Virus record (IMG/VR): IMGVR_UViG_3300037882_002341 | Location: 128,958-192,957 of that record | Origin: a virus | Lineage: Duplodnaviria; Heunggongvirae; Uroviricota; Caudoviricetes | Length of the DNA: 64,000 bases | Reading direction: 5' to 3' (one strand) | In this document: positions 2,734-46,018 of the stretch, one piece after another | Layout: every line of letters begins with the position of its first letter | Numbering within the stretch: position 1 is the stretch's first letter | Program-made: the position numbers and the translations under genes | Notes under the pieces: model-generated | Database searches by the model: none | What the model was told of the DNA's origin: nothing | The model's input: the letters and a program-made list of their open reading frames with translations, nothing else

Positions 2734-3146
2734 TACTTTACCTCTGTTTTATTATCCTGAGTTACATGAGTAATCGAATATTGAGGATTCACAAGAGGAC
2801 CAGACAATTCATACTTACTCTGAGTATATGAAACCTTAAACTCACGCTCAGAAACACTACGACCAGTGGGCACAACAAAAGATTCAACTTCTATAACGCG
2901 ACAACGACTAATTACAGATGGATAAATTTCCGTAAGTTTTTTCGCCGTGGACATAGCATGTCCAATGGAGTCGTATTGTTTCGCATATCCAAGGAAAGGT
3001 GTCAATAGACGAGGATTATATTTTCTGGACAACGATGGACCAATAAAATAAGATACAGCTCCAGACAGATGCATCACCTCAATAACAACTCTTATCGAGG
3101 TTGTAGCCCCTTTGTTTTCAAATGCTATTCTGACAGGATTTCTCAT
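2733..3146 (-). CDS. hypothetical protein
   Basis: 137-aa ORF, start overlaps upstream stop; no motif recognised. Confidence 0.4.
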   Translation of the reverse strand: MRNPVRIAFENKGATTSIRVVIEVMHLSGAVSYFIGPSLSRKYNPRLLTPFLGYAKQYDSIGHAMSTAKKLTEIYPSVISRCRVIEVESFVVPTGRSVSEREFKVSYTQSKYELSGPLVNPQYSITHVTQDNKTEVK

Positions 3147-4462
3147 TATATTCTTACCCCAACAGTCTCAACCAAGGGAATCTCATCTACCAATCTCATA
3201 ACATTCAACCACTGCTCAGCGATTAAATTATGATCAAAGTTCTTCTTAGCTATATCTCTTAAGATAGCACTCTTACCGGCCCAATAATCCCTGGATCTAT
3301 AAGAGTTATAGAACGCTTCCAGGCCCTCAGATATGTCCGGATACACCCATCTTATGTTATTAACAGGACAGGGTTCCCATCCAGTATAACCAACAGCCAC
3401 ACCGTGGCAGATACGACCTATCTCCCCGCAGCCTGCGTAATCCGTATAAACCGTAGGAATTCCACATGCCGTTGCTTCAATAATGGGAACACCAAATCCC
3501 TCTGATCCAGATAGCATACTGAGTATGTCGGAGATTTGGTATATCCTTGCCATTTGATCTGGTGGCAAGCCACGTTGATCAGAATAGCCAACTGTCTTTA
3601 ATACATGCTCAGCTATATTCCATTGCTTCTCAAGCAGATCAAAGTTCCATCTTGTGCCATCATTACCACTATGTACCCACAATTTAACGGGTATCCTATC
3701 AGCATAGACCTCAATACTCTTATCATCTTTATGTCTTCTAGCTACGGGATCCCACTCTAATCTCCGAGGTCTGTTCTCTCTGGTCCAGCCCCAAGCACCA
3801 GTGCTAAGATAGTGTATGATCTCAAAGGGAATCCATGGTCTCTTCCTTGCCTGATTCCTGCCGATATAAGAGATAAGATAGTCATCACTAGAGACAGTCC
3901 CATTAGTTACTTCTTTACGAAGTGCATCTCTTTCCTGTCTACTCACAGGATGAAAGACATCAAGATCAACTCCATGATAGATTACGGTGTAATCATCCCC
4001 TGTAATCTCTTTCCACTTATCGGCTGTGTACTTTGTAATAGCTACTGTCTTATCAGCTCCCTGTATGTAGGGGATATTTTCCCTATCAACAGGTTCCCCT
4101 TCCGATAGAGTCCAACGCACTAACTTAAAACCAAATCTACGCTTGTATGCATCTATATATTTCGACATATAGATGTCACCAAGATTCCACACAATCGTTG
4201 GCTTAAACTTAGTAAGCACGGCCTCAAAGGTTTCAGCACCCCACTTGTCTTCCTCTAAGAAACCTATCTTACCATCTTTCCTCTGTCCACTTTGGGTTGG
4301 CCATAGTTTCCATGTAACATCGTCCATGGATGGAACATTGAGCCAAGCATGCTGCTCCATCTGAAACTCACCAGACTTCAAGAGTCTTGTCCAAAGCTCC
4401 CTAATAATAGTTCCATAGGAAGCATGGGTTCTTGGAGAATAACCGGTAACCAAAACACGCAT
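3146..4462 (-). CDS. glycosyltransferase, GT-B fold (GT4-like)
   Basis: 438 aa. SGSEGFGVPIIEATACGIPTVYTDYAGCGEI is a GT4-type donor-binding segment. Confidence 0.5.
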   Translation of the reverse strand: MRVLVTGYSPRTHASYGTIIRELWTRLLKSGEFQMEQHAWLNVPSMDDVTWKLWPTQSGQRKDGKIGFLEEDKWGAETFEAVLTKFKPTIVWNLGDIYMSKYIDAYKRRFGFKLVRWTLSEGEPVDRENIPYIQGADKTVAITKYTADKWKEITGDDYTVIYHGVDLDVFHPVSRQERDALRKEVTNGTVSSDDYLISYIGRNQARKRPWIPFEIIHYLSTGAWGWTRENRPRRLEWDPVARRHKDDKSIEVYADRIPVKLWVHSGNDGTRWNFDLLEKQWNIAEHVLKTVGYSDQRGLPPDQMARIYQISDILSMLSGSEGFGVPIIEATACGIPTVYTDYAGCGEIGRICHGVAVGYTGWEPCPVNNIRWVYPDISEGLEAFYNSYRSRDYWAGKSAILRDIAKKNFDHNLIAEQWLNVMRLVDEIPLVETVGVRI

Positions 4463-6094: not shown

Positions 6095-6667
6095 CTACGC
6101 CAGCTTAACAAGTGCCTTAGGTGGTACACCAATACACTTTGGTAGTCTGGCATTACTTCCCACACAAACTGCATGGAACCTATATGTAAAAGGAATATCA
6201 CGGCCAGGTATCATAGCCATTTTGGCCTGCTCAATGGCATCCACAAAGAACATAGACATCTCTTTGTTCTTATGCCGTACCTCTAGCGTATTAACAATAG
6301 ACAAGTCAGTAAAGAGCGGGTACCGAAGATACTTCTGAAAATTATCAATCTGTACCCAGTGCCAGTTGTCTCTCGTTACAAGTATGGGTAACAGACCCTG
6401 ACTCTTGACTGCGGGTTCCTTGGAAAGACAAGCCAGTTCTTGCATCATCCAAGAATTAGACGATGCACCATTACTTGTATACTTGCATTCTATAATAAAA
6501 GCAAAATCTCTTTTTATAGAACACTCTTTTGTCCCATCCCACTCTGCACCGTCTACAAAGACATCTGTTTGTACCTCACCCTGTACTCTATCGATACCAT
6601 GTAGAGCACGCCGAGTCCCAAAGAACTCGGCGGTCTCACGTTCATGTCTTTTCCAACTCATATCCAT
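6095..6667 (-). CDS. putative PD-(D/E)XK-fold nuclease
   Basis: VDGAEWDG ... DFAFIIECKY gives a D ... E-x-K arrangement. 190 aa. Weak call. Confidence 0.3.
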   Translation of the reverse strand: MDMSWKRHERETAEFFGTRRALHGIDRVQGEVQTDVFVDGAEWDGTKECSIKRDFAFIIECKYTSNGASSNSWMMQELACLSKEPAVKSQGLLPILVTRDNWHWVQIDNFQKYLRYPLFTDLSIVNTLEVRHKNKEMSMFFVDAIEQAKMAMIPGRDIPFTYRFHAVCVGSNARLPKCIGVPPKALVKLA

Positions 6668-6673
6668 GACTTA

Positions 6674-7330
6674 TTATCTTCCTGGAACTGAACCAAAGGA
6701 AGCGAAGGGATCATTATCGCTAGCCTTAGTGTTGGTAGGTGTCGCGCTTATGCTTAAAGCATCATCGAGTCTTGGATCACCTTCCATGTAGACATTGCCC
6801 TTGGTATCAGAGAAATATCTCTTACCCGATCTTCTATCTACGCTGGTGGTCCAACCAGCAGGGAGAACACCTGCAACAGCATTAGGCAGCACAGGCGCAG
6901 TAGTGGCGGGAGCCATAGCCCCCCTAGCAGAAGGGATACTGGGAGCCAGAGAAGAACCATCGTCATCAGGAGACTCGTTATTCTTACCACCATTCTGTAG
7001 CCATGTAGTATACGCAGCTACACATTCGTTCTGGAAAGCCTTAAACTTTTCATCCGTATTGCTAGTTACATTTCTGTTGCTGTCATAGGTTCTTGGCCAG
7101 AACTGAACATAGTTCCCATACACAGCCTTACCAGTCTGAGGATTGGTCTTGTTTGTCTTATACTGCGGACCACTGGCGAAGAGACCATTACGCCCATCTC
7201 TAATTTGCCACCCACGAGTTCTGACAATACAGGTACTATCTACCCAAAACTCAACAGTCATATTGGCTAAGGCGCCAGCCTGTTTCTCGGAAGCCTGAAA
7301 GAACTCAAACTTAAATCTTGCTTGTGCCAT
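6674..7330 (-). CDS. hypothetical protein (Ala/Pro-rich middle)
   Basis: 218 aa, immediately downstream of recA; function not recognisable. Confidence 0.35.
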   Translation of the reverse strand: MAQARFKFEFFQASEKQAGALANMTVEFWVDSTCIVRTRGWQIRDGRNGLFASGPQYKTNKTNPQTGKAVYGNYVQFWPRTYDSNRNVTSNTDEKFKAFQNECVAAYTTWLQNGGKNNESPDDDGSSLAPSIPSARGAMAPATTAPVLPNAVAGVLPAGWTTSVDRRSGKRYFSDTKGNVYMEGDPRLDDALSISATPTNTKASDNDPFASFGSVPGR

Positions 7331-7341
7331 TATTAAATTCC

Positions 7342-8691
7342 TTATTTCTTAATGTTTTCTTCATACATTACAGCACTTAGATCGTTCTCTATCTTTATTC
7401 TCTCTACTGGATGGGTCTCGAGCCACTCAATAGCTTTAGCTTGCCCTTGTCCAATACTCTCTCCGTTGTACTTAAACCAAGAGCCAGACTGCTCTATGAT
7501 CTTAAAGCCAACGGCAGTGTTGAACAGTGACATTAAGGTCTCAAACCCCACACCAATCATAAATGGTAAAGCCACCTTATGTCCATCATATGGACTTCTA
7601 GCTTTACGCAGTGTGGCCACAACGAAGTAGCCAGTATGAATCTTGCGAATCTCTCCGTCTTTACATCTAATCTCCTTTTCAAAAGAGGCATCATTCTTTC
7701 TATTAAGATTGATAATGTAGTGTGCAAAGTGTCTAAGACCCAGTCCACCCTTCATTACCTGACCGCCATAGCCACCAATGTCCATCATCATGTGGGCAAT
7801 TAAGAAGCAACAAGTATTAGATTTCAGAATCTCAGGTGCCCAAACCCTTAACATCTGATTAATCTTACGGGCAGAAGTAGCAACGTGATCAGTCCGGATA
7901 TCTACTTCTGCCTGAGTCTTCTTTTCTTTATCTTTCTTGCCCTCAAACTCTACGGCAGGAGCCATAGCGCCTAGAGAATCCACAAGACACATAGTGATCT
8001 TGATACCCTGCTCTCTAGCATGCTTAAGAATGCGTACACCATGCGTAGCCATGTCTTCTAGTGGTAGAGTACCTGGGATCACTATAACCCTGTCCATGGG
8101 CACGCCAAAGCGTGCACACCAGTGTTGATCCACGGCATTCTCAGCATCAAGGATAAGAGCATACTCATCTTCATGAGCAGTAAGCCTTCTGGCAATACAT
8201 TCCATAGCCAGAGTGGTCTTACATGAGCCCTCGCTACCGCAGAGAGCTACAAAGCGTCCATGTGGTGCTCCACCATTCTCGGGAGTACCATCATGACTGA
8301 GTAGAGCATTAAGATTAGGTAAACCAAAAGGGCTTCTCTCGTAATTGATATACTTATCAACAATGTCTGTGGTTGCTCTTCCAACAATCAGATTGGAGTT
8401 TTTGGACAACTCTCCTAGTAGTTGATCTAGCTTTGCATGGGGATTGTCTGATGCCTCTTCTTTAACGACTTCTTTCTTCTTACCTCTCTTGGCCTTCTCA
8501 AGGACTACAACAGCAAGTTCAGGTAGAGCAGCAGCAGTCTCTTCTGCTGTCTCTGCCACAACCTCATCTAATTTCTTACCAAGCTCAGCATCAAGCTCGA
8601 GTTCAGGCTCAGCAACCACAGGATAAGTCGTCACAGAAGTATCCAAGGCATCCTTGTTTTCTTTGTCCCTTTTGTAAATACCCTTTGGCAT
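7342..8691 (-). CDS. recA: RecA-family recombinase with ~140-aa charged N-terminal extension
   Basis: Walker A ALCGSEGSCKTT, ILDAENAVD, L2-like region and C-terminal GSWFKYNGESIGQGQAKAIEWLETHP are colinear with bacterial RecA. 449 aa. Confidence 0.85.
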   Translation of the reverse strand: MPKGIYKRDKENKDALDTSVTTYPVVAEPELELDAELGKKLDEVVAETAEETAAALPELAVVVLEKAKRGKKKEVVKEEASDNPHAKLDQLLGELSKNSNLIVGRATTDIVDKYINYERSPFGLPNLNALLSHDGTPENGGAPHGRFVALCGSEGSCKTTLAMECIARRLTAHEDEYALILDAENAVDQHWCARFGVPMDRVIVIPGTLPLEDMATHGVRILKHAREQGIKITMCLVDSLGAMAPAVEFEGKKDKEKKTQAEVDIRTDHVATSARKINQMLRVWAPEILKSNTCCFLIAHMMMDIGGYGGQVMKGGLGLRHFAHYIINLNRKNDASFEKEIRCKDGEIRKIHTGYFVVATLRKARSPYDGHKVALPFMIGVGFETLMSLFNTAVGFKIIEQSGSWFKYNGESIGQGQAKAIEWLETHPVERIKIENDLSAVMYEENIKK

Positions 8692-9307: not shown

Positions 9308-9604
9308 CTATACAATCTTAACTTCTACATCCTTACGACTATTCCTTATGGACTGGAATATCCACTTAATTTGATCAGCTAAATTCACATGTATCTTTGC
9401 GGCATGGTCAAGACTCTCAAAATAGATATCCAGCTCATACATTAGATGCTCACCGTTATCTCCGTCTCCACCGGACTTCCATCCAAACGCATCACCACCG
9501 TGCACAAAATCTATATGAGCAAGTATTTTGTACAGTTCAATAGACATAGGATGGTGAGGAACATCTTTCTCCCAACGATCATTAATGTCTGTGTTAATCT
9601 CCAT
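9308..9604 (-). CDS. hypothetical protein
   Basis: 98-aa ORF coupled to the downstream gene. Confidence 0.4.
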   Translation of the reverse strand: MEINTDINDRWEKDVPHHPMSIELYKILAHIDFVHGGDAFGWKSGGDGDNGEHLMYELDIYFESLDHAAKIHVNLADQIKWIFQSIRNSRKDVEVKIV

Positions 9605-10311
9605 TACAGCTGAGCTCCTGTGCCTTCGGCACGTCTATTCCTACCCGCGACAAAATTCAAGAGTTCCACAAAGTTCCTAATAGAGTGGAAAGAGTTGTAC
9701 AGATACTTCTCCACAAACTCAAGATTGGCAGCTCGTTCTGATAGCTCTGCTGTTACTAATTTAGATAGCTCCTCAGCATCCAGATCAGTAACACGCGCGC
9801 CCTCTTCTGTAGCTGTTTTCTTCGCCTTAATATATGCCTTATTCCTATACCGTTTCTCTTCTGACCTTGCATGCTGAGCTTGAGACTGATATATGGCTAG
9901 CTCTTGAGACAAATCTGTTAAGAAAGCCGCCATCCTAGTTACATCACTGTCAGCAGTTATGTGATCAAAACCCTGCTTGTATTTATCCACTATGGCCTGA
10001 AGCTCATCCAGTACAGGACCATAGCTATCATCATTTCTAACCTCAATAAGAGAAGGCGGCTCAGAAAAACACCTCAGGCTCTCATCTGCCATAAGAACCT
10101 CAATGACAGCATCGATGCCAGGTACTATACTCACCTTACTCTTAAGAGCTTTCCTCGTACTATTTATGATCTTAGAAGTCTTATCGGCTCTGTCTATAAC
10201 AGTGCTGGGATTAGCTCCCTGGGGGATCTCAGGAGAGATAAACTCATCCACAATCTCTACCTCAGGAGCAAGATCAAAGAGACTCTTTACAGGCTTATGT
10301 TCATCGCTCAT
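9604..10311 (-). CDS. hypothetical protein
   Basis: 235-aa ORF; predicted coiled-coil C-terminal half. Confidence 0.4.
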   Translation of the reverse strand: MSDEHKPVKSLFDLAPEVEIVDEFISPEIPQGANPSTVIDRADKTSKIINSTRKALKSKVSIVPGIDAVIEVLMADESLRCFSEPPSLIEVRNDDSYGPVLDELQAIVDKYKQGFDHITADSDVTRMAAFLTDLSQELAIYQSQAQHARSEEKRYRNKAYIKAKKTATEEGARVTDLDAEELSKLVTAELSERAANLEFVEKYLYNSFHSIRNFVELLNFVAGRNRRAEGTGAQL

Positions 10312-10358: not shown

Positions 10359-10583
10359 TTACTCTTTCTTCCTAGCCTTCGTCTCCTTAAGAAGCTCTGA
10401 GGCAATCTCAAGAAGATCATCATCAGTGGCATGTCTTAGGCTTTCAATATACTCCGGTGGATTGATATCAAATCTTCCCCATCCCGTACGATCAATAGCC
10501 TCTTTGAAAGGAAAATCATCTTGCACAATCGGAGTTTCTTTCACAACACTAGCAAGCTCCCTAACTGGGAGCATAATTGCCAT
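10359..10583 (-). CDS. hypothetical protein
   Basis: 74-aa ORF. Confidence 0.3.
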   Translation of the reverse strand: MAIMLPVRELASVVKETPIVQDDFPFKEAIDRTGWGRFDINPPEYIESLRHATDDDLLEIASELLKETKARKKE

Positions 10584-10918
10584 AGGTCAAGGAACACCAC
10601 CTTCATTTACAACTTTACCATCTTTACAAATTGGTTTACCCTTTTGAATCCAGTTTATTAGTCTACGATAGGCGGCTCTATTTTTAGCTTGCCCAAGAGC
10701 AGCTTTTACTATTATCCACTGATGTTTATCTAACATGAGTTTTGCCCCTCTAAGATATGTGCTAGCTCATGTACATTAAGGCCCGCTCCAAGCAATGCCC
10801 TGGCTTCATTAAGACTTTCTTCACTAGGAACACCGCTTGATCTACATGACCAGCAATCAGTATCATCTTCTTCTAAATGACAACAAAGTAAGTCATTCAT
10901 TTTAAATAATCCCTCATC

Positions 10919-12508
10919 TTATAACGAGTCAAACCTAAGACCTCTATCTAGATTATTTACCTCACGCATACCAGTCTTCTTGATCCCAAGAGCCTCTGAA
11001 TAGGCACAACTAATCATAAATACATTATGTGTCTTCTGTTTGCGTAGACAAATCTCAAGACAGTATTCAACAGCAGACTCTACAGTAAAGTCATCGTTGG
11101 CAGACTCTCTATAACACAGTGAGTCTGACATAGTATGCATAAGGGTCCATACATACATAATAAGACCACGTACGTTCTGTGGCTTGCCAGGCATTACATA
11201 GGTATCAATTCTCTCTGAGCCCGCTTCTCTACCAACACACTCGGATACTTTCTCTGGCACATCCGCCAATGTCCCCAGTGTCTTACAGAGAATAAAATGT
11301 CTATCTGCTATTTTCTGATCAATACCATGTAACTCATTGTTGTAGATACGAACTAACTCATCCCTAATCTCATCTTCAGTGGGGTCATTTCTCAGTCTTG
11401 CGATAGGGAACTTCTGGATCTCATCTTCAAGAGTCTTCATATCTGTTGACGTTAGACAAGTTTTATACACGGGGAGAGACTGCGAAGCAGTCATGTACCG
11501 TATACCAGTATTGAATGTTCGGGGACTTATGGGATAAAGTCCTGCATCCAGTATGGTACAACCTCTTAATGGTGTATGGAAGGGAATAGTGGTATCTCCT
11601 GTACCAAAGAGCTTAGCCTTAGACTCAATAGCTCTTTCGTACAGAGTACCAACTATAGGTCCCCACTCAACATGGACATCTTTACTGTCTCCGGTTGCCC
11701 TTTGGATCTCAGCTCTCCACAAGACATTTCCAGGACCATTAACGCCCCAATACTTAGGATGCTTAGCTCCTTTACCAAAATAAAAATCACCGTCTACATC
11801 AACAAGCATTGTCTTAACGATATCGTATTCAATAATCTCACCAGGGAAAGCTGCCGAGAAGAACTCATCCGGTCTATTCTTAGCAGCAACCTCTGTAGGC
11901 AATTCTTGTGCAACACCTAGGAGATTGAAAGACTTATCATCTATCTTAATCTCTTTACCCGTTAAGACCTGAATCACATGCGCCACATCAGCTAAACTAA
12001 TGTTGTTTACCTTCTTACCAAGGACATTAGCAACGAAGTTAAATATACTTTCCTTGTCCCATACCTTTAACTCAGCTTTAGCTACCGACATAAGATCAAG
12101 CTCAAAGGATGTCCCACTGCGGATATACCTACACTTCAATAGAGTTTGCAGGAACGCCTTTAGACCAATATCCTTTGGTTGAAAGTCATTTCTCTCAATA
12201 GACTCAACCAACTTTATTGTTCCATAGAGTCTAAGCTCCGCAATAGCTGCATCATGAGCATTAAGATCTATGCTATCGGGAATGATTTCAGATCTATCAT
12301 CTGGAGATACACCAAACTCTTTCCAGTTTTCGAAGAGAGGTATGGGTATGTTGTCAGGATCAATAGGACCAACATCAACATCTTGACAGCAAGGCATAAC
12401 GCTGTTCTCGATCACCCAGGTGAAAGGTTTCTCAACAACCTCACACTCCATTGAAAGAAAATTGCTATTTGATCCTATCTTTACAAACTTAAGTTGCAGT
12501 ATTCTCAT
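10919..12508 (-). CDS. hypothetical protein (last gene of the AAA+/VWA operon)
   Basis: 529-aa ORF starting 10 nt after the upstream stop; no motif recognised. Confidence 0.45.
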   Translation of the reverse strand: MRILQLKFVKIGSNSNFLSMECEVVEKPFTWVIENSVMPCCQDVDVGPIDPDNIPIPLFENWKEFGVSPDDRSEIIPDSIDLNAHDAAIAELRLYGTIKLVESIERNDFQPKDIGLKAFLQTLLKCRYIRSGTSFELDLMSVAKAELKVWDKESIFNFVANVLGKKVNNISLADVAHVIQVLTGKEIKIDDKSFNLLGVAQELPTEVAAKNRPDEFFSAAFPGEIIEYDIVKTMLVDVDGDFYFGKGAKHPKYWGVNGPGNVLWRAEIQRATGDSKDVHVEWGPIVGTLYERAIESKAKLFGTGDTTIPFHTPLRGCTILDAGLYPISPRTFNTGIRYMTASQSLPVYKTCLTSTDMKTLEDEIQKFPIARLRNDPTEDEIRDELVRIYNNELHGIDQKIADRHFILCKTLGTLADVPEKVSECVGREAGSERIDTYVMPGKPQNVRGLIMYVWTLMHTMSDSLCYRESANDDFTVESAVEYCLEICLRKQKTHNVFMISCAYSEALGIKKTGMREVNNLDRGLRFDSL

Positions 12509-12517
12509 CGCAACTCC

Positions 12518-12772
12518 TTACTTCACCATAATCTCAACCTGAACAGGAACAATTTCAAAATCGGAAGCAATAGTTTGGGTATACCTACCACTAATTGCAA
12601 ACTGTCCACCGCGTTTCATTTTCCAACTCAATCCAGCCTTAGCGGATGTCACAGTTGTAAATAGAGACGCAGGACCAGGATGAGATCTACCACACTTACC
12701 AAACACTTGTCCAGTGGGCTTGTGTCTAAGGAGGAAATACTCTCTGGAATGAAGAACAACAAGATTACTCAT
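12518..12772 (-). CDS. small protein, tandem paralog family A
   Basis: 84 aa. Shares K/R-x-K-x-TG ... G ... E-I/L-V/I-PV-x-V/I-E-I/V with 12769..13002. ATGA start/stop overlap. Confidence 0.4.
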   Translation of the reverse strand: MSNLVVLHSREYFLLRHKPTGQVFGKCGRSHPGPASLFTTVTSAKAGLSWKMKRGGQFAISGRYTQTIASDFEIVPVQVEIMVK

Positions 12773-13002
12773 AGTTTCTCCGGCTTATCTGTGTGTACTT
12801 TAACTTCGATAGTGACAGGAATAAGTTCATAACTACCATGAGAGTAGTAACGAACCGAGTCGATTGCATTACCTCTACGATGAAAACATTTATTAATAGA
12901 TGTTAGATTACGAGGATCATGCCCACTGTCTCTACCATGTATTACTCCAGTTGTTTTATTCCTTACAAGCCAATAGGTCTTTATACCATCTAGCTTGTGC
13001 AT
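12769..13002 (-). CDS. small protein, tandem paralog family A
   Basis: 77 aa; paralog of 12518..12772; its start overlaps the stop of the AAA+ gene. Confidence 0.4.
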   Translation of the reverse strand: MHKLDGIKTYWLVRNKTTGVIHGRDSGHDPRNLTSINKCFHRRGNAIDSVRYYSHGSYELIPVTIEVKVHTDKPEKL

Positions 13003-14534
13003 TAAGCCACAGCCTTTGCAAGGATCTCCCTGAAATCTATTTGCTTATCCTCAATACGACGCTTCAACCTCTGGAAGTTGCCATCCGGTTCCGCAGAGAC
13101 AAACTCATGCACAGCTTCAACGGCAATAAGACCCTCAATAGGGTCACGCGCCATCGAAGACTCAATAAGAGTATTGATATCACCAATAGATCCTATCAAC
13201 TGACCAGGAAGCTTGGGAAGCTCAGGATCAATATGATTCTGTCTCACCTTCCTCTTCATAGAATCCAACACATTCTGAGGAAGAATACCATTCTTGCCGC
13301 TGCTACGCAGCTTAGCATCAACATTAATGGCAACGAAAGCAAGAAGATCGGCAGACCTCTCGTTCATTGAACTAATTCTCTGCCAGCCGGTATTAAGAAC
13401 TTCCTCAGAAGTTATCTTCCCAGAGATAAGAATACGGGCACGTTCAACAGGATCTCTTGAGCAGAATAGATCATACTGCAGTCTCTGCTCAGCAGCACTA
13501 TGTGTATCTAACGCATGATAGCTTTCGCGGATAGCAGTGTTAACAAACGTACGCATAGTCTGCCAAGGGAAGTCCTCTTCATTAATACCGACAGGAATAG
13601 TAGCATTAATGGCTTCCTGCATACTGTTTCTAAGATTAGTCGGATAGACATTAAGCTCCGAGTCAAGAGCCAATTCAATGGCCCTATTTGCAATGATGGT
13701 ACGACGAATATAAGCTAACCGTCTACCTGACAATCTAACAGGAGCGGGACTCTTATCATCCTTACTCTCAGTCATCCTCTGTAACAGGGAATCAGCAAAG
13801 AGAGACAGGAAGTCAGAAAGATTAGGCATATCATTTTCAATTTGCAGCCAGAACTTAGAAGCCTTTAGCATAAGCTTCTCAAACACGATAGAGGCAGCTT
13901 TATAATCAGTAGTGTCCTGGGTTCTAACAATATCACCAGCACTAGCACCGGCTTTCTTAAGCCAATCTCCCAAGGCAGGAGCATCGGATCTAGACATAGA
14001 GCTTGCAATCTTAGATCTATCCACTGTGTCCATGCTTAAGGCATCAGGAGCCCAAACATACACACTGAAGCGATCTACGATAGCAGGCGTAAGCTTATTG
14101 GCTCCAGCATGACCGACAGGGTTCATGTTGGCCCAGCACCAGCGTGTACCCGTGTCAACTCCGCCAATGGTACCAGATCTAAGATGCTCTAGCACCTTGC
14201 CCTGAATAGCAGGCTTGCAGCGGTTAATCTCTTCGTATGTCACGAAGGACTTACCCCAGATAGTGCCAGGGGCTTTCATGTAAGCCATCTCACCCTGTTG
14301 CATCTTTGGAATGTCTAACACACCAAGGATGTCATCGAAAGACACAGCATTCAAATCGAATGGAGCGAAGCTTACATTCATTACCTTAGCCAACTTCTGC
14401 GGCAATAAAGTCTTTGCTGCACCAGGATGACTAATAAGTAGGGCTCTGTCACCAGTTAAGATGGTTGATAGTAAGAGGTTCTCAAGTTGCTGAGGCCACC
14501 CGTATACTTGAATTTCGCCGAAGATCCTGGACAC
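13002..14534 (-). CDS. AAA+ ATPase, MoxR/CobS-like
   Basis: Walker A LLISHPGAAKTLL; 510 aa; the same operon carries a VWA-domain protein. Confidence 0.6.
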   Translation of the reverse strand: MSRIFGEIQVYGWPQQLENLLLSTILTGDRALLISHPGAAKTLLPQKLAKVMNVSFAPFDLNAVSFDDILGVLDIPKMQQGEMAYMKAPGTIWGKSFVTYEEINRCKPAIQGKVLEHLRSGTIGGVDTGTRWCWANMNPVGHAGANKLTPAIVDRFSVYVWAPDALSMDTVDRSKIASSMSRSDAPALGDWLKKAGASAGDIVRTQDTTDYKAASIVFEKLMLKASKFWLQIENDMPNLSDFLSLFADSLLQRMTESKDDKSPAPVRLSGRRLAYIRRTIIANRAIELALDSELNVYPTNLRNSMQEAINATIPVGINEEDFPWQTMRTFVNTAIRESYHALDTHSAAEQRLQYDLFCSRDPVERARILISGKITSEEVLNTGWQRISSMNERSADLLAFVAINVDAKLRSSGKNGILPQNVLDSMKRKVRQNHIDPELPKLPGQLIGSIGDINTLIESSMARDPIEGLIAVEAVHEFVSAEPDGNFQRLKRRIEDKQIDFREILAKAVA

Positions 14535-14540
14535 AGTAAG

Positions 14541-14759
14541 TTACTCCTTGGTTTCTGATACTTTAGATAGAAATTCTTCAGTAAGCGTATCGATATGTTG
14601 TTTGCCACATGGCAAGCAAAACCACGCATAGAGGACAAGGCCTTTGCGGACTGGGACATCATTCTCTTCAGCCAATGGCTCAACCTGAGCACCACCCAAT
14701 GGCATCTTAAAGAATGGATAAGTCTGGATTCTCTTGCACCCATAACATACGACTGGCAC
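14541..14759 (-). CDS. zinc-ribbon protein
   Basis: 72 aa; CYGCKRIQ ... CLPCGKQH. Confidence 0.4.
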   Translation of the reverse strand: MPVVCYGCKRIQTYPFFKMPLGGAQVEPLAEENDVPVRKGLVLYAWFCLPCGKQHIDTLTEEFLSKVSETKE

Positions 14760-15178
14760 TAGTCAGTCCTCTCAGCAATATGGATAATTTGCCGATCATC
14801 AATATCACTAAACACATAGGCCCATTGATAATCGGATTCTTTTAGATGAAAAACTCTGACAACATATTGAAGTGGCAAAGTTGGATAATCATCACGTATA
14901 CCCCAAAGACAGACTCCTGTATCAGATTCGTCATGTCTATCTTCCTCTATCCGATTTCTGATCTTCTTCTTGACAAATCTAGTCCAGTTCTTTGGATCAT
15001 TAGGATCCAGTCCAGAAAAGTGGTAGTCAAGATATTCTTTAGTAAATGTTTTGCCCTTCCACTTACCATTAGCTATCCAAAACTTAATACAAATATCAGA
15101 AGTAAGCTTGCCCATTAGATTTCTCTCATAGCTTTGACACCAAGCTTCTGTAGTTCTTCCGTCAATCCCAAAGCACAT
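14759..15178 (-). CDS. hypothetical protein
   Basis: 139-aa ORF in the operon. Confidence 0.4.
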   Translation of the reverse strand: MCFGIDGRTTEAWCQSYERNLMGKLTSDICIKFWIANGKWKGKTFTKEYLDYHFSGLDPNDPKNWTRFVKKKIRNRIEEDRHDESDTGVCLWGIRDDYPTLPLQYVVRVFHLKESDYQWAYVFSDIDDRQIIHIAERTD

Positions 15179-15333
15179 TCGCCATGGAAGAATCCCTGTC
15201 CACCAGGACCAGGATGCATAGAAAGAAAGACAGCTGCCTTATTTTTCTCAACATCTTTCTTGCACCATTTACAGGGAACTGGTTTCTTAGGACTGTCAAT
15301 CAAAGGTGTAACTCTGCCTCTTCTATCTTTCAT
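15115..15333 (-). CDS. small zinc-finger-like protein
   Basis: 72 aa; CKWCKK ... HGECALG. Overlaps 14759..15178 in another frame, so one of the two ends may be shorter. Confidence 0.3.
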   Translation of the reverse strand: MKDRRGRVTPLIDSPKKPVPCKWCKKDVEKNKAAVFLSMHPGPGGQGFFHGECALGLTEELQKLGVKAMREI

Positions 15334-16853
15334 TAGGTCTTATCCTTAAATGCATCAGAAAGCATGCACGCACTGTTATAGCGTTGACCAAGCCAGGTCT
15401 TAGTAAGGAACATGTCTAATATTTCCTTATTAGCCATGTAAAATGGATCCCCGCTTGTAACACCTGTAACCTCGTTACCTCTTACGTAATGAGAGCCACC
15501 GGGTAACTGGGTAACCATAAGAACCAGCACCTTACTAATCTTCTTATCCGCTTCCTCACGAATCTTTGGATTGTTTACATCTGCCCAGCCATCCGTAATG
15601 ATAAGTACCTTATCATAGTTGTGCTCTATTGCGTGAGCAAGAACACAATCAAAATCGGTACCTCCTGTGCTATTAATTCTTACTTTATTACCCTTGATAT
15701 CGTTAAATGGAATCTCAGCCACCATATTAGAGAACTGATATATCTTTTCAACCATATCCTCAACACACTGGATTACACCAAGAGTGTAAGGAATAAAGGA
15801 ATAGAAAGAACCAGACACATCCATATAGATAGCTAGTCCACCGTCTCCATCCTCAACTTCTTTCTCGGTTTCCTGCTCGAAGAAGATAGGTGTCCATCCC
15901 ATGGCTAGTTTAAACGCATCACGTTTAGTGAGCTTCAGTGGCAGCATACTTTGTTCTGGTTCATCGGGTTCAAAAGTCTTACGGATCTTTTTCTTAATAG
16001 TATCAAGAACGAAGTCCTCAACAAGAATGGTCTTGAGACTCTTGTTGGAGTTCATCCTCTCTACAACAAAGTCGCCCATTACATTAGAGTAACCCGCTGA
16101 TTGACAAGCTTCTTTAACACCATTACTCATATGTTCTACAAGGCTTGGTGGCAAACGATCCGACTTAGTTTTAATAACCTGTTGCTCACCCGCTCCCTCA
16201 AAACCATGAGCATAGTTTCCTTTCCCCTTGCTTTGGCCAGGGGTACCTTCTTCACCCTCTTCCCCCTCGCCCTCTCCTTCTCCCGCTTCACCTCCTCCTT
16301 GTCCAAACCCGGGAACCTGAATATCATTAGGATCTAATCCCTGAGGGATTAGACTGGTATCAAGGAAGAGAATACGAAGAGCCTGCTCCACGTTACTTAT
16401 ATTAGTAAACCGTGCTTCTCTATCCCAAATACCTCTATAAATACGCTTAAGACGGCTATGATAACCTCTAGCATTAGGTCTCATTAAACATTCAGGGAGA
16501 TCTTTGGCAGAATACATTGCTCTAGGCAACTCATGGTACCCAAAAGCATGGAATAAATAAGCATTAATAACTGCACCAGCAGCGACTTTACTTATCCAGT
16601 CGGGATTATGATACTGTACACCTAGTACGTGCTTCATAATCTCAGCAAAGACAACATGCTTAGCCTTCTCTGGTGTATCTATATTAGCATCCCACCAATC
16701 AGGGTCATAATAAAGAACGCCATCCGCACCAAGCATAATGCCGCATGTTATGGAATCCTCTTCCACTCTGGTGCAGAAATTCTGGAGTGTTACAGCTTCT
16801 GCACCAATAACTTGTCCCATAATACGATGTAACTTAGCAAGTGTAAGTTTCAT
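15333..16853 (-). CDS. VWA-domain protein (CobT-like partner of the AAA+ ATPase)
   Basis: MIDAS-like DVSGSF near the C-terminus; acidic Gly/Glu low-complexity tract; 506 aa. Confidence 0.55.
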   Translation of the reverse strand: MKLTLAKLHRIMGQVIGAEAVTLQNFCTRVEEDSITCGIMLGADGVLYYDPDWWDANIDTPEKAKHVVFAEIMKHVLGVQYHNPDWISKVAAGAVINAYLFHAFGYHELPRAMYSAKDLPECLMRPNARGYHSRLKRIYRGIWDREARFTNISNVEQALRILFLDTSLIPQGLDPNDIQVPGFGQGGGEAGEGEGEGEEGEEGTPGQSKGKGNYAHGFEGAGEQQVIKTKSDRLPPSLVEHMSNGVKEACQSAGYSNVMGDFVVERMNSNKSLKTILVEDFVLDTIKKKIRKTFEPDEPEQSMLPLKLTKRDAFKLAMGWTPIFFEQETEKEVEDGDGGLAIYMDVSGSFYSFIPYTLGVIQCVEDMVEKIYQFSNMVAEIPFNDIKGNKVRINSTGGTDFDCVLAHAIEHNYDKVLIITDGWADVNNPKIREEADKKISKVLVLMVTQLPGGSHYVRGNEVTGVTSGDPFYMANKEILDMFLTKTWLGQRYNSACMLSDAFKDKT

Positions 16854-16875: not shown

Positions 16876-17157
16876 TCAGTTGTCACAATGATCTCTCACA
16901 AGATTATACCAATTACGATGAACAGCTTTAAACTCAGGAGCAGCATATACCATATCAAGATATTCTCCCCCACGCTGGGCTGCCTTGTCTCTAGCTAGAC
17001 GAGCAGCCTCTTCTCTTGTGAGAGCAAGAAAAACATATACCTGATCGTCACTAGGATCAGTTATGTTGTTCATCCAGCAGAACCACTTCTTCTTTCTTTT
17101 CCCCTTAGGCATTCTCAGGCTCCACATCCAGATTCTGTACAGCAGTATAACCACCAA
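16876..17157 (-). CDS. hypothetical protein (KKKKW motif)
   Basis: 93 aa; shares KKKKW-F/Y ... EEA with 17105..17377, so possibly tandem paralogs. Confidence 0.3.
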   Translation of the reverse strand: MVVILLYRIWMWSLRMPKGKRKKKWFCWMNNITDPSDDQVYVFLALTREEAARLARDKAAQRGGEYLDMVYAAPEFKAVHRNWYNLVRDHCDN

Positions 17158-17377
17158 GACTTCCCTTAGAGTTTGTCTTTCTGGTTCCCTTTAATGCTTT
17201 GTAAGACAAGGGGAAAAGTCTCTTAAGCTGCTCTGTCCCAAGAATGGGATTATCATTAGAACAAATGTTGGGATAGGAAGCATCAAATGTAACTCTAGCT
17301 TCTTCAATGGTATGCTCTCTAATGCATACATACGTATCATTAACATACAGATACCACTTCTTCTTCTTGGTCTTCAT
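17105..17377 (-). CDS. hypothetical protein (KKKKW motif)
   Basis: 90 aa. Confidence 0.3.
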   Translation of the reverse strand: MKTKKKKWYLYVNDTYVCIREHTIEEARVTFDASYPNICSNDNPILGTEQLKRLFPLSYKALKGTRKTNSKGSLGGYTAVQNLDVEPENA

Positions 17378-17564
17378 TTTAATTTCCTTATAGTAAAAAC
17401 TTAGCCAGGTAAAATAATTTCCATAACAATTGCACCGATCTCAGAGTTCAAATCACTAATATAATCAAGATCGGGATCTCTCTTTAATAGCTCACCCTCA
17501 ATATCCTGATAAATAGTTAGGATATCATTAAGCTGTGATAATAGTTTCTCCTTATTTTTCTTTT

Positions 17565-17879
17565 TCATAACCACTCCGCTTTACTACGTTTCCTTGTAGG
17601 TAACTTGTAAGGATTAACATATCCAGAATGCTGATCAACTTCTTCTATAAAGTCCTGAACATAAAGTGGAGTCGGTATCTCTACTGTTTCACCAAAAGTA
17701 TCCACAAAGGCACAACTATTACCATAAGTAGAGCATTCTCTAGATATTGCCTTTGATATTGGACAAGTAGTAATTGACCGTGTCATACCAATAGGTAATT
17801 TCTTAAGTGGTTTCAATCCATTATCGGCTCTCACCCTATTTACCCACTTAAGAACTCTATCTAACTTGTTCTTTGTCAT
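17565..17879 (-). CDS. hypothetical protein
   Basis: 104 aa; several Cys residues. Confidence 0.35.
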   Translation of the reverse strand: MTKNKLDRVLKWVNRVRADNGLKPLKKLPIGMTRSITTCPISKAISRECSTYGNSCAFVDTFGETVEIPTPLYVQDFIEEVDQHSGYVNPYKLPTRKRSKAEWL

Positions 17880-18398: not shown

Positions 18399-19007
18399 TT
18401 ATGCAGTTTGCAAACTCTTAGGTTCCTGATCCTTTTCAATAGTGCGCTTAAAGCACATATTACTAGCACTATGAAAGACAACAACACCCTCTGGTTTCAT
18501 AAACCCAGGAGAGGCAGAGCTTCCTCTTTCCCGAAGTAAGGTAAGACAATCTTCAATATAGCCCATGTCAAATATACCACGATATAATACTGGAACAAGA
18601 TTACAACATGCAGGAGGATCACCATCTCCTGTTGCAGACCATCTAGTGGTATTAAAGAGACTCCATTTCTTCTCACCCTTCGGTAGCCCATACCCGCGCT
18701 GGATACCAGAGCCCCACCACTCACCGAAATGTCGTCCAGGACCAAGCTTAACAAGTTCCTCCGCATGGTCTTTGACCCATGTTGCAAACCCATGATTATC
18801 ATCACCAGGGACAATATACTTAGTGCGAGAGCCTGCGAGGATTGCATATCCATTTATATAAGCAACAGCAGGCACTGTTGGATCTGACAATAGTCTTGTA
18901 TCAATAATAAATACCTGCGCATTTGTTCCGTCGATCTTCTCGGTAACAATTATGTCGCGCTGTAAGCGTGCAATTTTTGGGAACTCCATAAAATCTTCGT
19001 CGGCCAT
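18399..19007 (-). CDS. ATP-dependent RNA ligase-like nucleotidyltransferase (Rnl2-type, minimal domain)
   Basis: Motif I EKIDGTN (KxDG lysine adenylylation site), motif III HFGEWWG, motif IV PEGVVVF and motif V K in FKRTIEK are all in the canonical order. Only 202 aa, so nucleotidyltransferase domain only. A DNA ligase fragment cannot be excluded. Confidence 0.5.
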   Translation of the reverse strand: MADEDFMEFPKIARLQRDIIVTEKIDGTNAQVFIIDTRLLSDPTVPAVAYINGYAILAGSRTKYIVPGDDNHGFATWVKDHAEELVKLGPGRHFGEWWGSGIQRGYGLPKGEKKWSLFNTTRWSATGDGDPPACCNLVPVLYRGIFDMGYIEDCLTLLRERGSSASPGFMKPEGVVVFHSASNMCFKRTIEKDQEPKSLQTA

Positions 19008-20552: not shown

Positions 20553-21016
20553 TTTCTAGGATCCGAATCCGGGGTAAGAGTAAAACCACCGGACCCACTT
20601 CCCTTTCCAGAGAAGCCAGTGGGCTCACTCTCCTTTCCAGAGAGATCTGATGAATCTAGATCGGTCAGCTTCAAAGACGGAGTAGGGTCCGAGCGTATCT
20701 CTCGTGTTTCTTTTACTTCATCACTAGGATTCTCGGGTACTTTTTCTCTATCACCAAAAGACTCATTCGTGTTCCACTCTTCAAGAACAACCGCTACCCG
20801 AGGCTTTATGCCCTTTACAACATTAACAATCAGATATCTAATGTCTTTTACAAGAGCGCCATCGGCATCCTTTAACATCTTACGCAAGTGTTCTTCGGCC
20901 TCAACCGAACTTTTGTGTCCCATAGAAAAACAAGTCCAGTTAGCCTCGTTTACTATTTCAAGACCCTGGTACATAACAGCAAAGGTATTGGCGGGTTCCT
21001 CATTATCTTTTTGCAT
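20546..21016 (-). CDS. hypothetical protein (acidic, Ser/Gly-rich C-terminus)
   Basis: 156 aa. Confidence 0.4.
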   Translation of the reverse strand: MQKDNEEPANTFAVMYQGLEIVNEANWTCFSMGHKSSVEAEEHLRKMLKDADGALVKDIRYLIVNVVKGIKPRVAVVLEEWNTNESFGDREKVPENPSDEVKETREIRSDPTPSLKLTDLDSSDLSGKESEPTGFSGKGSGSGGFTLTPDSDPRKW

Positions 21017-21962
21017 TTATCTTTGCTCCTAACTGCGTAAAAGTATTTAGATATTCAACAACCTCTGGTATCTCAGATGGCAAATTACCAGAGCTCTTTA
21101 CTATTCTCATGATATAAGAAGGATGAAAAGTTGTTAGGACAGGTACATCAACATCCTCAATACCGCTACTGTGCCATCCTTTAACACGATTAATAGAGAT
21201 ATCTCTCATATTAAGTTCAGTGTTCTTCTTAACAGCGGCCATTAATCTCTTGTTTTCAGCTAACTGTACCCAAGAATACTTACCAAGGCAAACGACAGCA
21301 ACAAGAGGATTACCTGGCCGTTCCGCAAGAGTTCTAATGATATCTATAACCCTAACTCTCTGTTCCAATAGATCAAGAGTGCTTGGTTTACCTATATCAT
21401 TTGTATTATGTACACGATCAGGGATAGTGCATACGGTGTTAATAAGCATCACATCATTAGCTCTGCTAATGCCGGATGCATTAAGAACACCACTTAATAC
21501 CTGTCCAGCATCCCCTATGAAATTAATACCAAACTTGTCCTCTTGCCAGCCAGGAGCCTCTCCTATCATGAGTACTTTAGCTGTTGCAGGATTACCAGAT
21601 CCCCAGACGAAAGTCTTCTTATTAGCATAAGGCGATAGATTATGGAGATTAAGACACAGACTATATACTTGTTCCAAAGGTGGGTTTCTAGATATCTCTG
21701 CACTAGTAACCAATTCTTGCGGAGAAATTCCCGCATGAACAGGTAAGACAATTGTATGAGACATTCTATTCATCTCCACTTGGTTAATACCAAGACCAGC
21801 AGCACCACCGGTAAAATTAAATAAATCAATAGGCTCACTAAGAGCAATAAGTTCATTGCCCCTAAGAGATTCATTACAATGGGGGCAATTAAGACTAAGC
21901 TTAGGGGTAAGTAAAACTAGATCCCTAGTAACCTTACTACTTCTATTGCCGATTTGTACCAT
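21003..21962 (-). CDS. uracil-DNA glycosylase, family 4, with ~120-aa N-terminal extension
   Basis: VLMIGEAPGWQEDKFG (motif A GEAPG) and NFIGDAGQVL (F-x-G-x-AG) are family-4 UDG signatures. CPHC cysteines are consistent with the Fe-S cluster of this family. 319 aa. Confidence 0.65.
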   Translation of the reverse strand: MVQIGNRSSKVTRDLVLLTPKLSLNCPHCNESLRGNELIALSEPIDLFNFTGGAAGLGINQVEMNRMSHTIVLPVHAGISPQELVTSAEISRNPPLEQVYSLCLNLHNLSPYANKKTFVWGSGNPATAKVLMIGEAPGWQEDKFGINFIGDAGQVLSGVLNASGISRANDVMLINTVCTIPDRVHNTNDIGKPSTLDLLEQRVRVIDIIRTLAERPGNPLVAVVCLGKYSWVQLAENKRLMAAVKKNTELNMRDISINRVKGWHSSGIEDVDVPVLTTFHPSYIMRIVKSSGNLPSEIPEVVEYLNTFTQLGAKINAKR

Positions 21963-23113
21963 GAGAATTCATCCTTCATTTTATAAGCAATAGACTCATA
22001 AGGATTTATAGAACAACTAGGGCGAGAAGCCATATGTGCAATAGCTTTTGCTATATCGGAAGAGTCAACCTGATACCAGAAACCTTCTCCATTAAAAAAT
22101 GGAGGGTCCTTGCCTAACTGAAAATTCCCACCTATACTTATCCTGTTAGAAAACCCAGTCTTGGCTTTAACAAAAGCATCATAGATACCAAAGAAATCAC
22201 TGCTTCCCGTAAGGCCAGTAGAAAGCGTTGGTATACCAAGACCAATAGATTCTCCTATTGGTAAACCCCAACCCTCACTCTTGGTTGGGAAGACCATTGT
22301 TCCAACCCCTTCCCAATCTTGAACCACATCCTCTTGCCATTTACTATGGCCGAGTATTTCTATACTACAACCCTTACCAAAGAAGTATTTCCCACCATGA
22401 TCTTTCCATTTTAAGGCAAGTAAATGGTTACGAAGACCATGGAGATTCCACCAGTTATGTCCCCAAAACTTAAAGTTAATATAAAGACCTTCAGCGTCAA
22501 GACTTTGCAGGGCATCTATTAATTCATAATGTCCTTTACGTCTTTCAAACTTACCCACAGTACCAATGGTAAGATTGGGATAACCATACACAGGGTCTTG
22601 TCTCTTGTGATCAAAATTAGCTATACCCTCTGGGACAACTTGCACCTTATAAAGATGATGAGGGAAACAATGATCAATTACCCTCTTGCCCCATATACTT
22701 GGAACCCAAATACGGTCAAATCTATCGAGTTTAACAAGCTCATTACGATAACTAAATTCTATGGTCTCATTCCCAGGATAATCTACTGGTATTAATTCAA
22801 ATACTGTATATGCAATAAGAGAAACACCCGTCTCAACAAAACTATAATTTTCATCAAACCACTGATTACATTTACGTGGTGTATCTAAAACAATAATTGC
22901 ATTAGGTTTTTCTGTAACATTCTGAGTTAGTAAGAATGAACCAATTCTCCTTGCTATATCTCTTTTGGTACTATAAGAAACAGTACCAATAGGACAGATT
23001 TGAAGCTTAAGCAAAGCAGATTCCGACAGTTGTATTAACTCATTAAGAAGATACTGAGCATGAGTACCTATACCGGTAGGATTAATAGGAGCATGGATTC
23101 TTACAGTAAGCAT
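21917..23113 (-). CDS. glycosyltransferase, GT-B fold (GT4-like)
   Basis: 398 aa; VFPTKSEGWGLPIGESIGLGIPTL is an E-x7-E type segment. Confidence 0.5.
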   Translation of the reverse strand: MLTVRIHAPINPTGIGTHAQYLLNELIQLSESALLKLQICPIGTVSYSTKRDIARRIGSFLLTQNVTEKPNAIIVLDTPRKCNQWFDENYSFVETGVSLIAYTVFELIPVDYPGNETIEFSYRNELVKLDRFDRIWVPSIWGKRVIDHCFPHHLYKVQVVPEGIANFDHKRQDPVYGYPNLTIGTVGKFERRKGHYELIDALQSLDAEGLYINFKFWGHNWWNLHGLRNHLLALKWKDHGGKYFFGKGCSIEILGHSKWQEDVVQDWEGVGTMVFPTKSEGWGLPIGESIGLGIPTLSTGLTGSSDFFGIYDAFVKAKTGFSNRISIGGNFQLGKDPPFFNGEGFWYQVDSSDIAKAIAHMASRPSCSINPYESIAYKMKDEFSWYKSAIEVVRLLGI

Positions 23114-45986: not shown

Positions 45987-46018
45987 TGGTGGACCCGGGG
46001 GGTATCGAACCCCCGTCC
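45987..46018 (-). other. orphan tRNA 3'-end-like minihelix (GGAC / T-arm / CGG-GTCC-A-CCA)
   Basis: The minus strand reads GGAC-GGGGG-TTCGATA-CCCCC-CGGGTCC-A-CCA. It has a T-arm, an acceptor 3' strand and an encoded CCA. No canonical 5' half lies upstream; only a 4-nt GGAC can pair with GTCC. Confidence 0.4.

Follow-up and report, generated by a model that had tools for sequence, protein, structure and literature searches.

The DNA considered here is a stretch of 64,000 nucleotides (the window), positions 128,958 to 192,957 of the 192,957-bp phage record IMGVR_UViG_3300037882_002341; all genes lie on one strand. The locus of interest is a block of minus-strand open reading frames (ORFs) at 10919-16853 of the window, built around an AAA+ ATPase of the MoxR class and a protein with a von Willebrand factor A (VWA) domain. 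The run of ORFs lies where a first-pass annotation, made from the letters alone, had placed it, and the motifs quoted there (DVSGSF, an acidic G/E tract, LLISHPGAAKT, CxxC pairs) are all present; the block holds eight genes rather than the nine announced, the larger figure being a miscount of that annotation's own eight-item list. The genes, with one downstream neighbor, are as follows.

15333-16853, minus strand: VWA506, a DUF2201-type VWA protein and putative co-chaperone
15115-15333, minus strand: Zn72a, a small CxxC...HxxC protein
14759-15115, minus strand: u118, the 139-aa ORF of the first annotation (14759-15178) with a probable ATG start at 15115
14541-14759, minus strand: Zn72b, a 72-aa C4 zinc ribbon, GTG start
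13002-14534, minus strand: AAA510, the MoxR-class AAA+ ATPase, GTG start
12769-13002, minus strand: p77, a mini-paralog
12518-12772, minus strand: p84, a mini-paralog
10919-12508, minus strand: big529, an orphan 529-aa protein
9604-10311, minus strand: d235, a 235-aa predicted helical protein downstream of big529

Abutting or overlapping junctions had been claimed for the whole series; five of the seven are of that kind, at -1 or -4 nt, but two are gaps (in order along the block: -1, -1, -1, +6, -1, -4 and +9 nt). Such packing is no special property of the MoxR/VWA block, as tight junctions are the norm window-wide: a crude gene model of the minus strand has 105 ORFs and is 94% coding, and in it neighboring genes are at most 10 nt apart at 76% of junctions and overlap at 53%. 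The 139-aa gene exists as an ORF, but a start at 15178 makes it overlap Zn72a by 64 nt; the ATG at 15115, which gives a 118-aa product and a TAATG junction with Zn72a, is probably the start. Counts of promoter-like and terminator-like sites are no higher than those expected from shuffled sequence, and one extended -10 candidate (16932-16903, ~50 nt upstream of VWA506) is unsupported.

Related loci give the block its outline. Eight were compared: L001-L007, of the same clade as the window, and L009 (identical with L014), from a distant jumbo phage of 180,792 bp whose VWA protein is 28% identical. Where the contig reaches, the order is DUF2201-VWA protein, zinc ribbon, AAA+ ATPase, a protein of ~527-562 aa and a protein of ~235 aa. 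The C4 zinc ribbon and the ~527-aa protein keep their positions in all eight, L009 included; the 562-aa protein of L009 is homologous to big529 by a hidden Markov model (HMM) search (E 5.6e-8) and by hhalign (E 7e-5 over 428 colinear columns). Identities to the window in L001, L003 and L004 are 80, 74 and 64% for the ATPase, 72, 69 and 55% for the VWA protein, and 67, 59 and 48% for big529. Conservation as a block, on which the idea of a dedicated machine had been made to depend, thus holds for a core of four to five genes and fails for the remaining small ones. Farther out the set thins. In locus L015 (177 kb) the genes run VWA453, AAA580, one for a 669-aa protein and a d235 homolog, and L016, L017 and L019-L022 keep only the adjacency of the AAA+ and VWA genes, in either order. 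The large proteins beside the pair in L015, L016, L019 and the bacterial loci L011 and L012 have no detectable relation to big529.

AAA510 is, by its domain match and motifs, a MoxR-class AAA+ ATPase. It matches Pfam AAA_3 (PF07726) over residues 32-157 at 37.8 bits (gathering cutoff 27, E 2e-9); the closest solved structure is MoxR 2r44 (E 1e-7 with the single sequence, 8e-11 with a profile), and RavA comes next. In alignment A5, which holds AAA510 and its clade orthologs (ten members), the Walker A motif PGAAK[TS] is kept throughout (PGAAKT in AAA510), and sensor-1 N138, R155 (in VDRF; taken as the arginine finger) and SGRR 269-272 (taken as the sensor-2 site) are invariant, with N138 and R155 aligning to the equivalent positions of 2r44. 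The Walker B motif of the clade is VTYEE, with E101 and E102 invariant, an aspartate-to-glutamate change present in 10/10 members; the canonical DE form is found in L009, L015-L017 and bacterial homologs. A C-terminal extension makes AAA510 ~190 residues longer than a standard MoxR. It aligns over its full length with the L009 ATPase (AAA531), and over only the first ~320 residues with bacterial homologs. The VWA gene adjoins the ATPase gene, or lies within a few small genes of it, wherever the contig covers that side. Scans of IMG/VR and GTDB genomes with the single ATPase and with its profile returned no loci. The sole ATPase tblastn match in INPHARED, Stenotrophomonas phage TS-12, belongs to a different operon type (MoxR/DUF58/transglutaminase-like) and was dropped as an analogue.

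The partner, VWA506, falls into three parts: a probable zincin-like domain at the N-terminus, an acidic G/E linker of variable length (~residues 183-213) and, at the C-terminus, a VWA-like domain. Its metal ion-dependent adhesion site (MIDAS) is intact and invariant (DVSGS 345-349, GGTD 397-400, TDG 420-422). The description as a VWA protein is carried by these motifs and by profile comparisons, but not by any direct Pfam VWA call. Direct Pfam matches are weak: DUF2201 in four of five members (E 0.12, below threshold) and VWA_CoxE in three of five (best among members 6e-4). A profile of five orthologs (A4), used to search 5.8 billion proteins, returned a chain of relatives, P0038-P0042, among them P0038 at E 5e-55 and P0042 at 8e-7; by hhalign its VWA part matches P0040 at 99.5% and P0042 at 98%. 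P0042, named "DUF2201 family putative metallopeptidase" by NCBI, passes PF13203 (25.8 bits, cutoff 23.2; P0038 scores 18.7). Members of the window clade have no direct Pfam match to PF13203, and the link is transitive through P0038 and P0042. In a MAFFT alignment with these relatives (A6), the N-domain of VWA506 is colinear with their zincin-like domain. On this chain of profile matches VWA506 is classed as a divergent DUF2201-type protein, with a PF09967 VWA-like domain and an N-domain that would correspond to the zincin-like PF13203. With Pfam AAA_3 and MoxR 2r44/RavA on one side, and the MIDAS and hhalign matches to DUF2201 proteins on the other, the MoxR-VWA pair of the first-pass annotation is borne out.

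The peptidase motif is a different matter. At the HExxH position all 12 clade members read [AF]E[IVL][IML][KRQ] (AEIMK in VWA506), yet the N-domain is densely conserved within the clade. HExxH is kept in all nine distant jumbo-phage loci (L014-L022, IMG/VR), in P0038, P0040, P0041 and P0042, and in those bacterial homologs that have the N-domain. The loss of the motif across the whole clade argues against proteolytic processing as the essential activity; with the zinc ligands of the zincin-like domain gone, the domain would be able to bind but not to cut. The clade N-domain reads as a degenerate pseudo-peptidase kept for binding.

The two conserved companions of the pair are a zinc ribbon and an orphan. 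Zn72b, with cysteines arranged as C5xxC8...C48xxC51, has homologs in L001 and L003-L007, each encoded directly upstream of the AAA+ gene; in L001 the homolog is also directly after the VWA gene. At this place L009 and L016 have CxxC proteins of 95 aa and 126 aa, respectively, and Zn72b would be a conserved small accessory partner. The orphan, big529, had been listed as lacking any recognizable domain, and no match was found in Pfam, PHROG, NCBIfam or PADLOC, nor among PDB sequences; neither is it recognizable as a known structural protein, which had been named as the finding that would tell against a dedicated machine. A word-indexed search gave five relatives, and an exhaustive profile search of 1.84 billion representatives gave nine real ones. 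An AlphaFold2 model from the resulting ten sequences has a predicted local distance difference test score (pLDDT) of 83.4 and a predicted template modeling score of 0.58; an earlier model from six sequences had a pLDDT of 56, which rose to 83 when four distant relatives were added. The predicted layout is an N-terminal beta-hairpin, a helical region at ~135-235, a beta-rich region at ~236-352 and an alpha/beta region at ~357-500. The tail, 502-529, falls below a pLDDT of 50, yet is conserved in sequence (consensus TREVVxLDxGxxFD). Compared with BFVD and PDB the model has no fold match, virion protein folds included; it is mixed alpha/beta without repeated blades, and no beta-propeller was matched. 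A similarity of residues 255-335 to a 2667-aa TPS/YDG adhesin (E 2.7e-6, nine repeats) was treated as beta-repeat noise.

Invariant polar residues of big529 are H404, H458, D214, E215, E224 and E227, and both histidines align to histidines of the L009 homolog. Its gene is the next large one after the ATPase gene throughout its clade and in L009, and this position makes big529 the most probable client or third subunit of the pair. The protein after it, d235, has homologs following the large protein in L001, L003-L005 and L009 (E 2e-11), and in L015, whose copy matches that of L009 at E 4e-16; its profile drew only coiled-coil noise from PDB. The d235 gene is a conserved downstream neighbor of the module, and its product a candidate member.

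The remaining genes behave otherwise. Zn72a has no tblastn match in L001-L004 and u118 no homolog in related loci; both are seen only in this window. The proteins p77 and p84 had been called paralogs, and the relationship, although weak (28% identity, E 2e-5), is real. Their family has nine members, and its HMM matches only ORFs between the ATPase and big529 genes, in copy numbers of zero (L005, L006, L007, L009), one (L001), two (the window, L004) or four (L003). The best matches of p84 are L001_74 and L003_96; it has no match in Pfam or PDB or by hhalign, and Pfam, PDB profile and hhalign searches detected no relatives of the family beyond that slot. A 'WGRxG'-like motif had raised the idea of a WGR-like domain, which neither Pfam (E≤10) nor a PDB profile search supports; hhalign comparisons with other module proteins, gp34/35 of phage RG-2014, L009_70 and L003_71 gave no support either. 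In L006 the ATPase-big529 slot is filled by four unrelated small genes. The slot is, as the gene contents and copy numbers read, a hotspot of small-gene birth and death, and Zn72a, u118, p77 and p84 would be variable, fast-turnover insertions dispensable for the core. The first-pass annotation had all the listed small genes as parts of one machine; with two of them confined to the window, the mini-paralogs at zero to four copies and the slots holding unrelated genes, this does not stand. What survives of the dedicated multi-component machine is its conserved extra partners, the zinc ribbon and the ~527-aa protein, but not every gene on the list.

In L004 an HNH-type endonuclease gene (2746-3357; 203 aa, CxxC pairs, stretch 'NGIDRVDSNLGYIESNCVPCCVICN') stands between the zinc-ribbon and ATPase genes; module junctions thus tolerate mobile insertions. 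The edges of the block vary in the same manner: four small ORFs upstream of VWA506 (u104, u57, u90 and u93; 16876-17879, minus strand) and three between big529 and d235 (d56, d49 and d74; 10359-10900, minus strand) are not in the otherwise syntenic L001. The N-terminus of d56 is Cys-rich (CCH...CxxC).

The type of pair is not new: fused peptidase-vWA proteins with an AAA+ partner are already known from N4, rV5-like and jumbo phages. Iyer et al. 2021 (Viruses 13:63; PMC7824862) described a MoxR and metallopeptidase-vWA pair in 'group 2.2' jumbo phages, and for these intact-peptidase pairs proposed virion assembly with proteolytic processing. The likeness, which for their examples ASV44729.1 and ASV44728.2 rests on the published description, lies in a MoxR gene next to a vWA gene with an N-terminal zincin-like domain, in very large phages. 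Loci L014-L022 match that form exactly, with HExxH intact, whereas the window clade differs in the lost HExxH, the EE Walker B, the ~510-aa ATPase with its long C-terminal extension, and the co-conserved zinc ribbon and orphan ~527-aa protein.

In N4-type phages (Schitoviridae) an AAA+ protein and a protein with DUF2201_N, acidic linker and vWFA are encoded with a few small genes between them; in Delftia phage RG-2014 the homologs of N4 gp24/gp25 are genes 33 (AAA) and 36 (DUF2201_N + vWFA) (PMC5735904). RG-2014 gp36 has an HExxH domain, an acidic linker and a VWA domain, the last matching A6 at 96.9% by hhalign. In N4-like phages the analogous pair sits among replication and nucleotide-metabolism genes, and the rV5-like Pectobacterium phage DU_PP_I has one too (p108 and p111). 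The N4-type system differs from the window clade in its shorter AAA+ subfamily (359 aa; hhalign 38.8% to A5), its order of ATPase then VWA, its intact HExxH, and the lack of any homolog of big529 or the zinc ribbon.

Two bacterial loci come close. L012 (an Elusimicrobia metagenome-assembled genome, MAG) and L011 (metagenomic) are operons of a long MoxR with a DUF2201/VWA_CoxE protein; their ATPases, of 476-502 aa, can be aligned with A5 across ~320 residues (E 1e-27 to 1e-33), and their VWA proteins are the closest non-phage relatives of VWA506. They differ in a DE Walker B, an HExxH that is intact where the N-domain is present, and unrelated accompanying proteins (374, 381, 342 and 305 aa); the C-terminal part of the phage ATPase does not align. 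L012 (JACQWW010000120.1, 2410-13186) reads AAA476, VWA315, then proteins of 381, 342 and 305 aa, the last two paralogs (E 2e-12). It lies beside a BrnT/CopG toxin-antitoxin pair and AAA_14/DUF4143, PRiA4_ORF3+SEC-C and AAA_16 genes, surroundings that, in this one example, look like a mobile or defense-island context.

The first-pass annotation had also looked to CobS/CobT-like chaperones and to conflict systems. CobS/CobT and BchI/BchD do resemble the pair in having an AAA+ protein and a partner whose C-terminal VWA/MIDAS domain is preceded by an acidic linker; however, VWA506 has a zincin-like N-domain in place of the CobT/BchD N-domain, and the ATPase is nearest to MoxR 2r44/RavA. No CobS, CobT or CobN family was matched in Pfam or NCBIfam at E≤0.1, big529 has no similarity to CobN/BchH, and the CobS/CobT label falls away. 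The ternary conflict systems of Kaur et al. 2020 (eLife 9:e52696; PMC7159879) share with the module a MoxR-vWA couple and a third, lineage-specific protein, and differ in that the module is phage-encoded and not from a multicellular bacterium. Among PADLOC models there was no match for any phage or bacterial member, so that membership in a known defense or conflict family finds no backing; nor were VMAP, iSTAND, FtsH, beta-propeller or effector domains found in the module. A search of NCBIfam likewise returned nothing.

One way to understand the core is by the division of labor that Kaur et al. 2020 (PMC7159879) set out for MoxR-vWA couples: the vWA MIDAS captures a substrate peptide or acidic residue, and the MoxR ATPase turns ATP hydrolysis into a conformational change by which the substrate is assembled, matured or released. 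The reading preferred here, with confidence a little better than even, is that the block encodes a MoxR AAA+/VWA chaperone that remodels big529, its client or third subunit, with the zinc ribbon as accessory and a role in the replication phase. That is, AAA510, presumed to form the usual ring, would supply the work; VWA506 would hold the target through its intact MIDAS, by way of an acidic residue, and through its non-catalytic zincin-like domain; Zn72b would be an accessory subunit, possibly docking on the C-terminal extension of AAA510; the conserved, disordered, acidic C-terminal tail of big529 would most likely be what the MIDAS site or the ATPase pore takes hold of; and ATP turnover would remodel, assemble or activate big529. 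The module would act inside the infected cell during replication, not in virion morphogenesis. The timing is weakly favored because in every relative the module lies in a block of replication, recombination and nucleotide-metabolism genes; its neighbors in the window are a helicase, DnaE, a UDG-like protein (UDG, uracil-DNA glycosylase), glycosyltransferases, an RNA ligase, a PDDEXK nuclease and RecA, and in L009 an ATP-cone protein, probably a ribonucleotide reductase, lies just upstream of the VWA gene.

Several observations weigh against this chaperone reading. As big529 has no recognizable fold or motif, "client" is a name given from position, and where a gene lies says little about when it acts. 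The evidence shows which domains are present, the state of their motifs, which genes are conserved together and in what order; that the proteins form a physical complex, that big529 is its client, what its tail does, the timing and the process are what we infer. The EE Walker B, clade-wide, may mean that ATPase activity is altered or lost. L015 has no zinc ribbon, and its 669-aa protein shows no similarity to big529. Close relatives are syntenic region-wide, and the kept gene order could partly reflect common descent. Finally, versions with an intact peptidase have a different role proposed for them, in virion assembly (Iyer et al. 2021, PMC7824862).

A second perspective takes that proposal over to the window: the pair would fold, assemble or process structural proteins, and big529 would be a structural or scaffolding client. 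Pairs of the same architecture are those for which Iyer et al. 2021 (PMC7824862) made the case, the Acidianus two-tailed virus tail, for which such a role is shown, is given as a precedent in the passage of Kaur et al. 2020 (PMC7159879) that mentions it, and big529 is, like many structural proteins, large, orphan and fast-evolving (67/59/48% against 80/74/64% for the ATPase). Yet the peptidase motif needed for processing is the very one lost in 12/12 clade members; moreover, the module is placed among replication and recombination genes rather than next to recognizable structural ones, and the big529 model resembles no virion protein fold in BFVD or PDB. A virion-assembly role is thus unlikely for this clade.

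A third perspective locates the module in phage-host conflict, with the pair gating big529 as effector or sensor and the mini-paralogs serving as diversifying adaptors or inhibitors against host defenses. The variable slot speaks for it: mini-paralogs are born and lost there at zero to four copies, with ~30% identity and in that single slot. The three-part layout of MoxR, vWA and lineage-specific third protein is the one seen in Kaur et al. 2020, AAA510 has a match to bpMoxR (PF20030), although below the cutoff (22.1 bits against 27), a non-homologous large protein takes the same slot in L015, and the bacterial L012 lies next to BrnT/CopG, AAA_14 and PRiA4_ORF3/SEC-C genes. But that defense-island context is one MAG contig; the mini-paralogs, missing from L005, L006, L007 and L009, are not needed by the core; and neither a PADLOC match nor an effector domain, nor any VMAP, iSTAND, FtsH or beta-propeller, turned up in the searches. 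The conflict role is accordingly held to be improbable. A bolder reading would make the core set an unrecognized phage ternary machine, in which big529 is an ATP-gated effector or scaffold acting on the host or on the replication apparatus of the phage itself, and the mini-paralogs are small, rapidly duplicating modulators that arise and disappear in the slot; this is doubtful, and is offered as a speculation.

The commonest documented role of MoxR-vWA pairs beside a client is cofactor or metal insertion (Kaur et al. 2020, PMC7159879), as in CoxD/CoxE, NorQ/NorD and CbbQ/CbbO, and on that model big529 would be an enzyme whose metal site is matured at the expense of ATP. VWA_CoxE is the best direct Pfam match for several family members, and big529 has its invariant His, Asp and Glu residues, with both His aligned in the L009 homolog. 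Nonetheless, a few conserved polar residues among ten sequences are weak evidence, big529 has no enzyme fold or known metal-binding motif, and in L015 the slot is filled by an unrelated protein; metal maturation is very unlikely to be the function. It is just as hard to credit that there is no dedicated unit at all, with only the ATPase and VWA protein cooperating and the zinc ribbon, big529 and d235 being neighbors by ancestry, for although tight junctions are normal genome-wide, the whole region is syntenic among relatives, and the deeper ones (L016, L017, L019-L022) retain only the AAA+/VWA adjacency with changes of order, the four core genes have stayed unseparated in eight loci (28-75% VWA identity) while slots gained and lost small genes freely, and in L015 the AAA+ gene is still followed by those for the large protein and the d235 homolog.

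Four points set this rare clade apart: a pseudo-peptidase clade-wide, an EE Walker B, an orphan ~527-aa partner and a small-gene hotspot. Zincin-fused MoxR-VWA pairs recur in N4-like, rV5-like and several jumbo lineages, and a function has been demonstrated for none of them. The clade is a natural experiment, in which the peptidase motif is gone and the domain is still conserved. The tight linkage of big529 to the pair makes it a concrete candidate client and, if it is one, would give a handle on the job of a widespread phage chaperone. What limits practical work is that metagenomes are the only source from which the clade is known.

The phage itself is, by gene content and by its distance in searches, a jumbo phage far from anything cultured. 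The block has no megablast match among INPHARED phages, and the DnaE has at most ~33% identity among the matches listed. The genome encodes a DnaE-type polymerase, a superfamily 2 helicase, RecA, an RNA ligase, a UDG-superfamily protein, several GT4 glycosyltransferases, dCMP deaminase, dNMP kinase and a NAPRTase/NAMPT-type enzyme. The last of these (47800-49290), the dCMP deaminase (40682-41161) and the dNMP kinase (41154-41723), all on the minus strand, are auxiliary nucleotide and NAD metabolism genes in the window. The RNA ligase is of the Rnl type (18399-19007); in L006 the place just downstream of the module, which other relatives fill with different genes, is taken by an RtcB RNA ligase (6393-7592).

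At least three of the glycosyltransferases are of GT4 type; with them are a DegT-family aminotransferase and one further glycosyltransferase, and the UDG-superfamily protein lies directly beside one GT4. The set is placed as follows.

511-1731, 3146-4462, 21003-21962, 21917-23113 and 35257-37319, minus strand: glycosyltransferase/UDG/DegT set

The pair of glycosyltransferase and UDG genes is kept in L001, L003 and L009, and the set may be a kit for DNA base modification or glycosylation.

Two adjacent minus-strand genes, 50348-52246 and 52246-53955, have weak matches to domains of multisubunit RNA polymerase (Rpb2 domain 6, 5e-9; Rpb1 domain 2, 5.5e-5, below threshold), which suggests split beta/beta'-like subunits of a phage-encoded enzyme; the 50348-52246 product had no tblastn match among 50,697 phage records. 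The window also carries one transfer-messenger RNA (tmRNA) and two tRNAs. The tmRNA gene, at 45987-46411 on the minus strand, is full length (Rfam RF00023, 113 bits, E 2e-43, model positions 1-374 of 374), although ARAGORN did not call it; a tRNA-Arg(TCT) lies at 47718-47792.

A second VWA protein, at 41840-43411, had been placed immediately upstream of the tRNA block. The protein is real (Pfam VWA, 9e-15), but the nearest RNA genes, that tmRNA and tRNA-Arg, are ~2.5 kb away. It has no MoxR neighbor and is unrelated to the MoxR/VWA506 module; near it, on the minus strand, are genes for a DUF7873 protein (43905-44675, 1e-50) and an SPFH/Band-7 protein (44782-45807, 1e-29).

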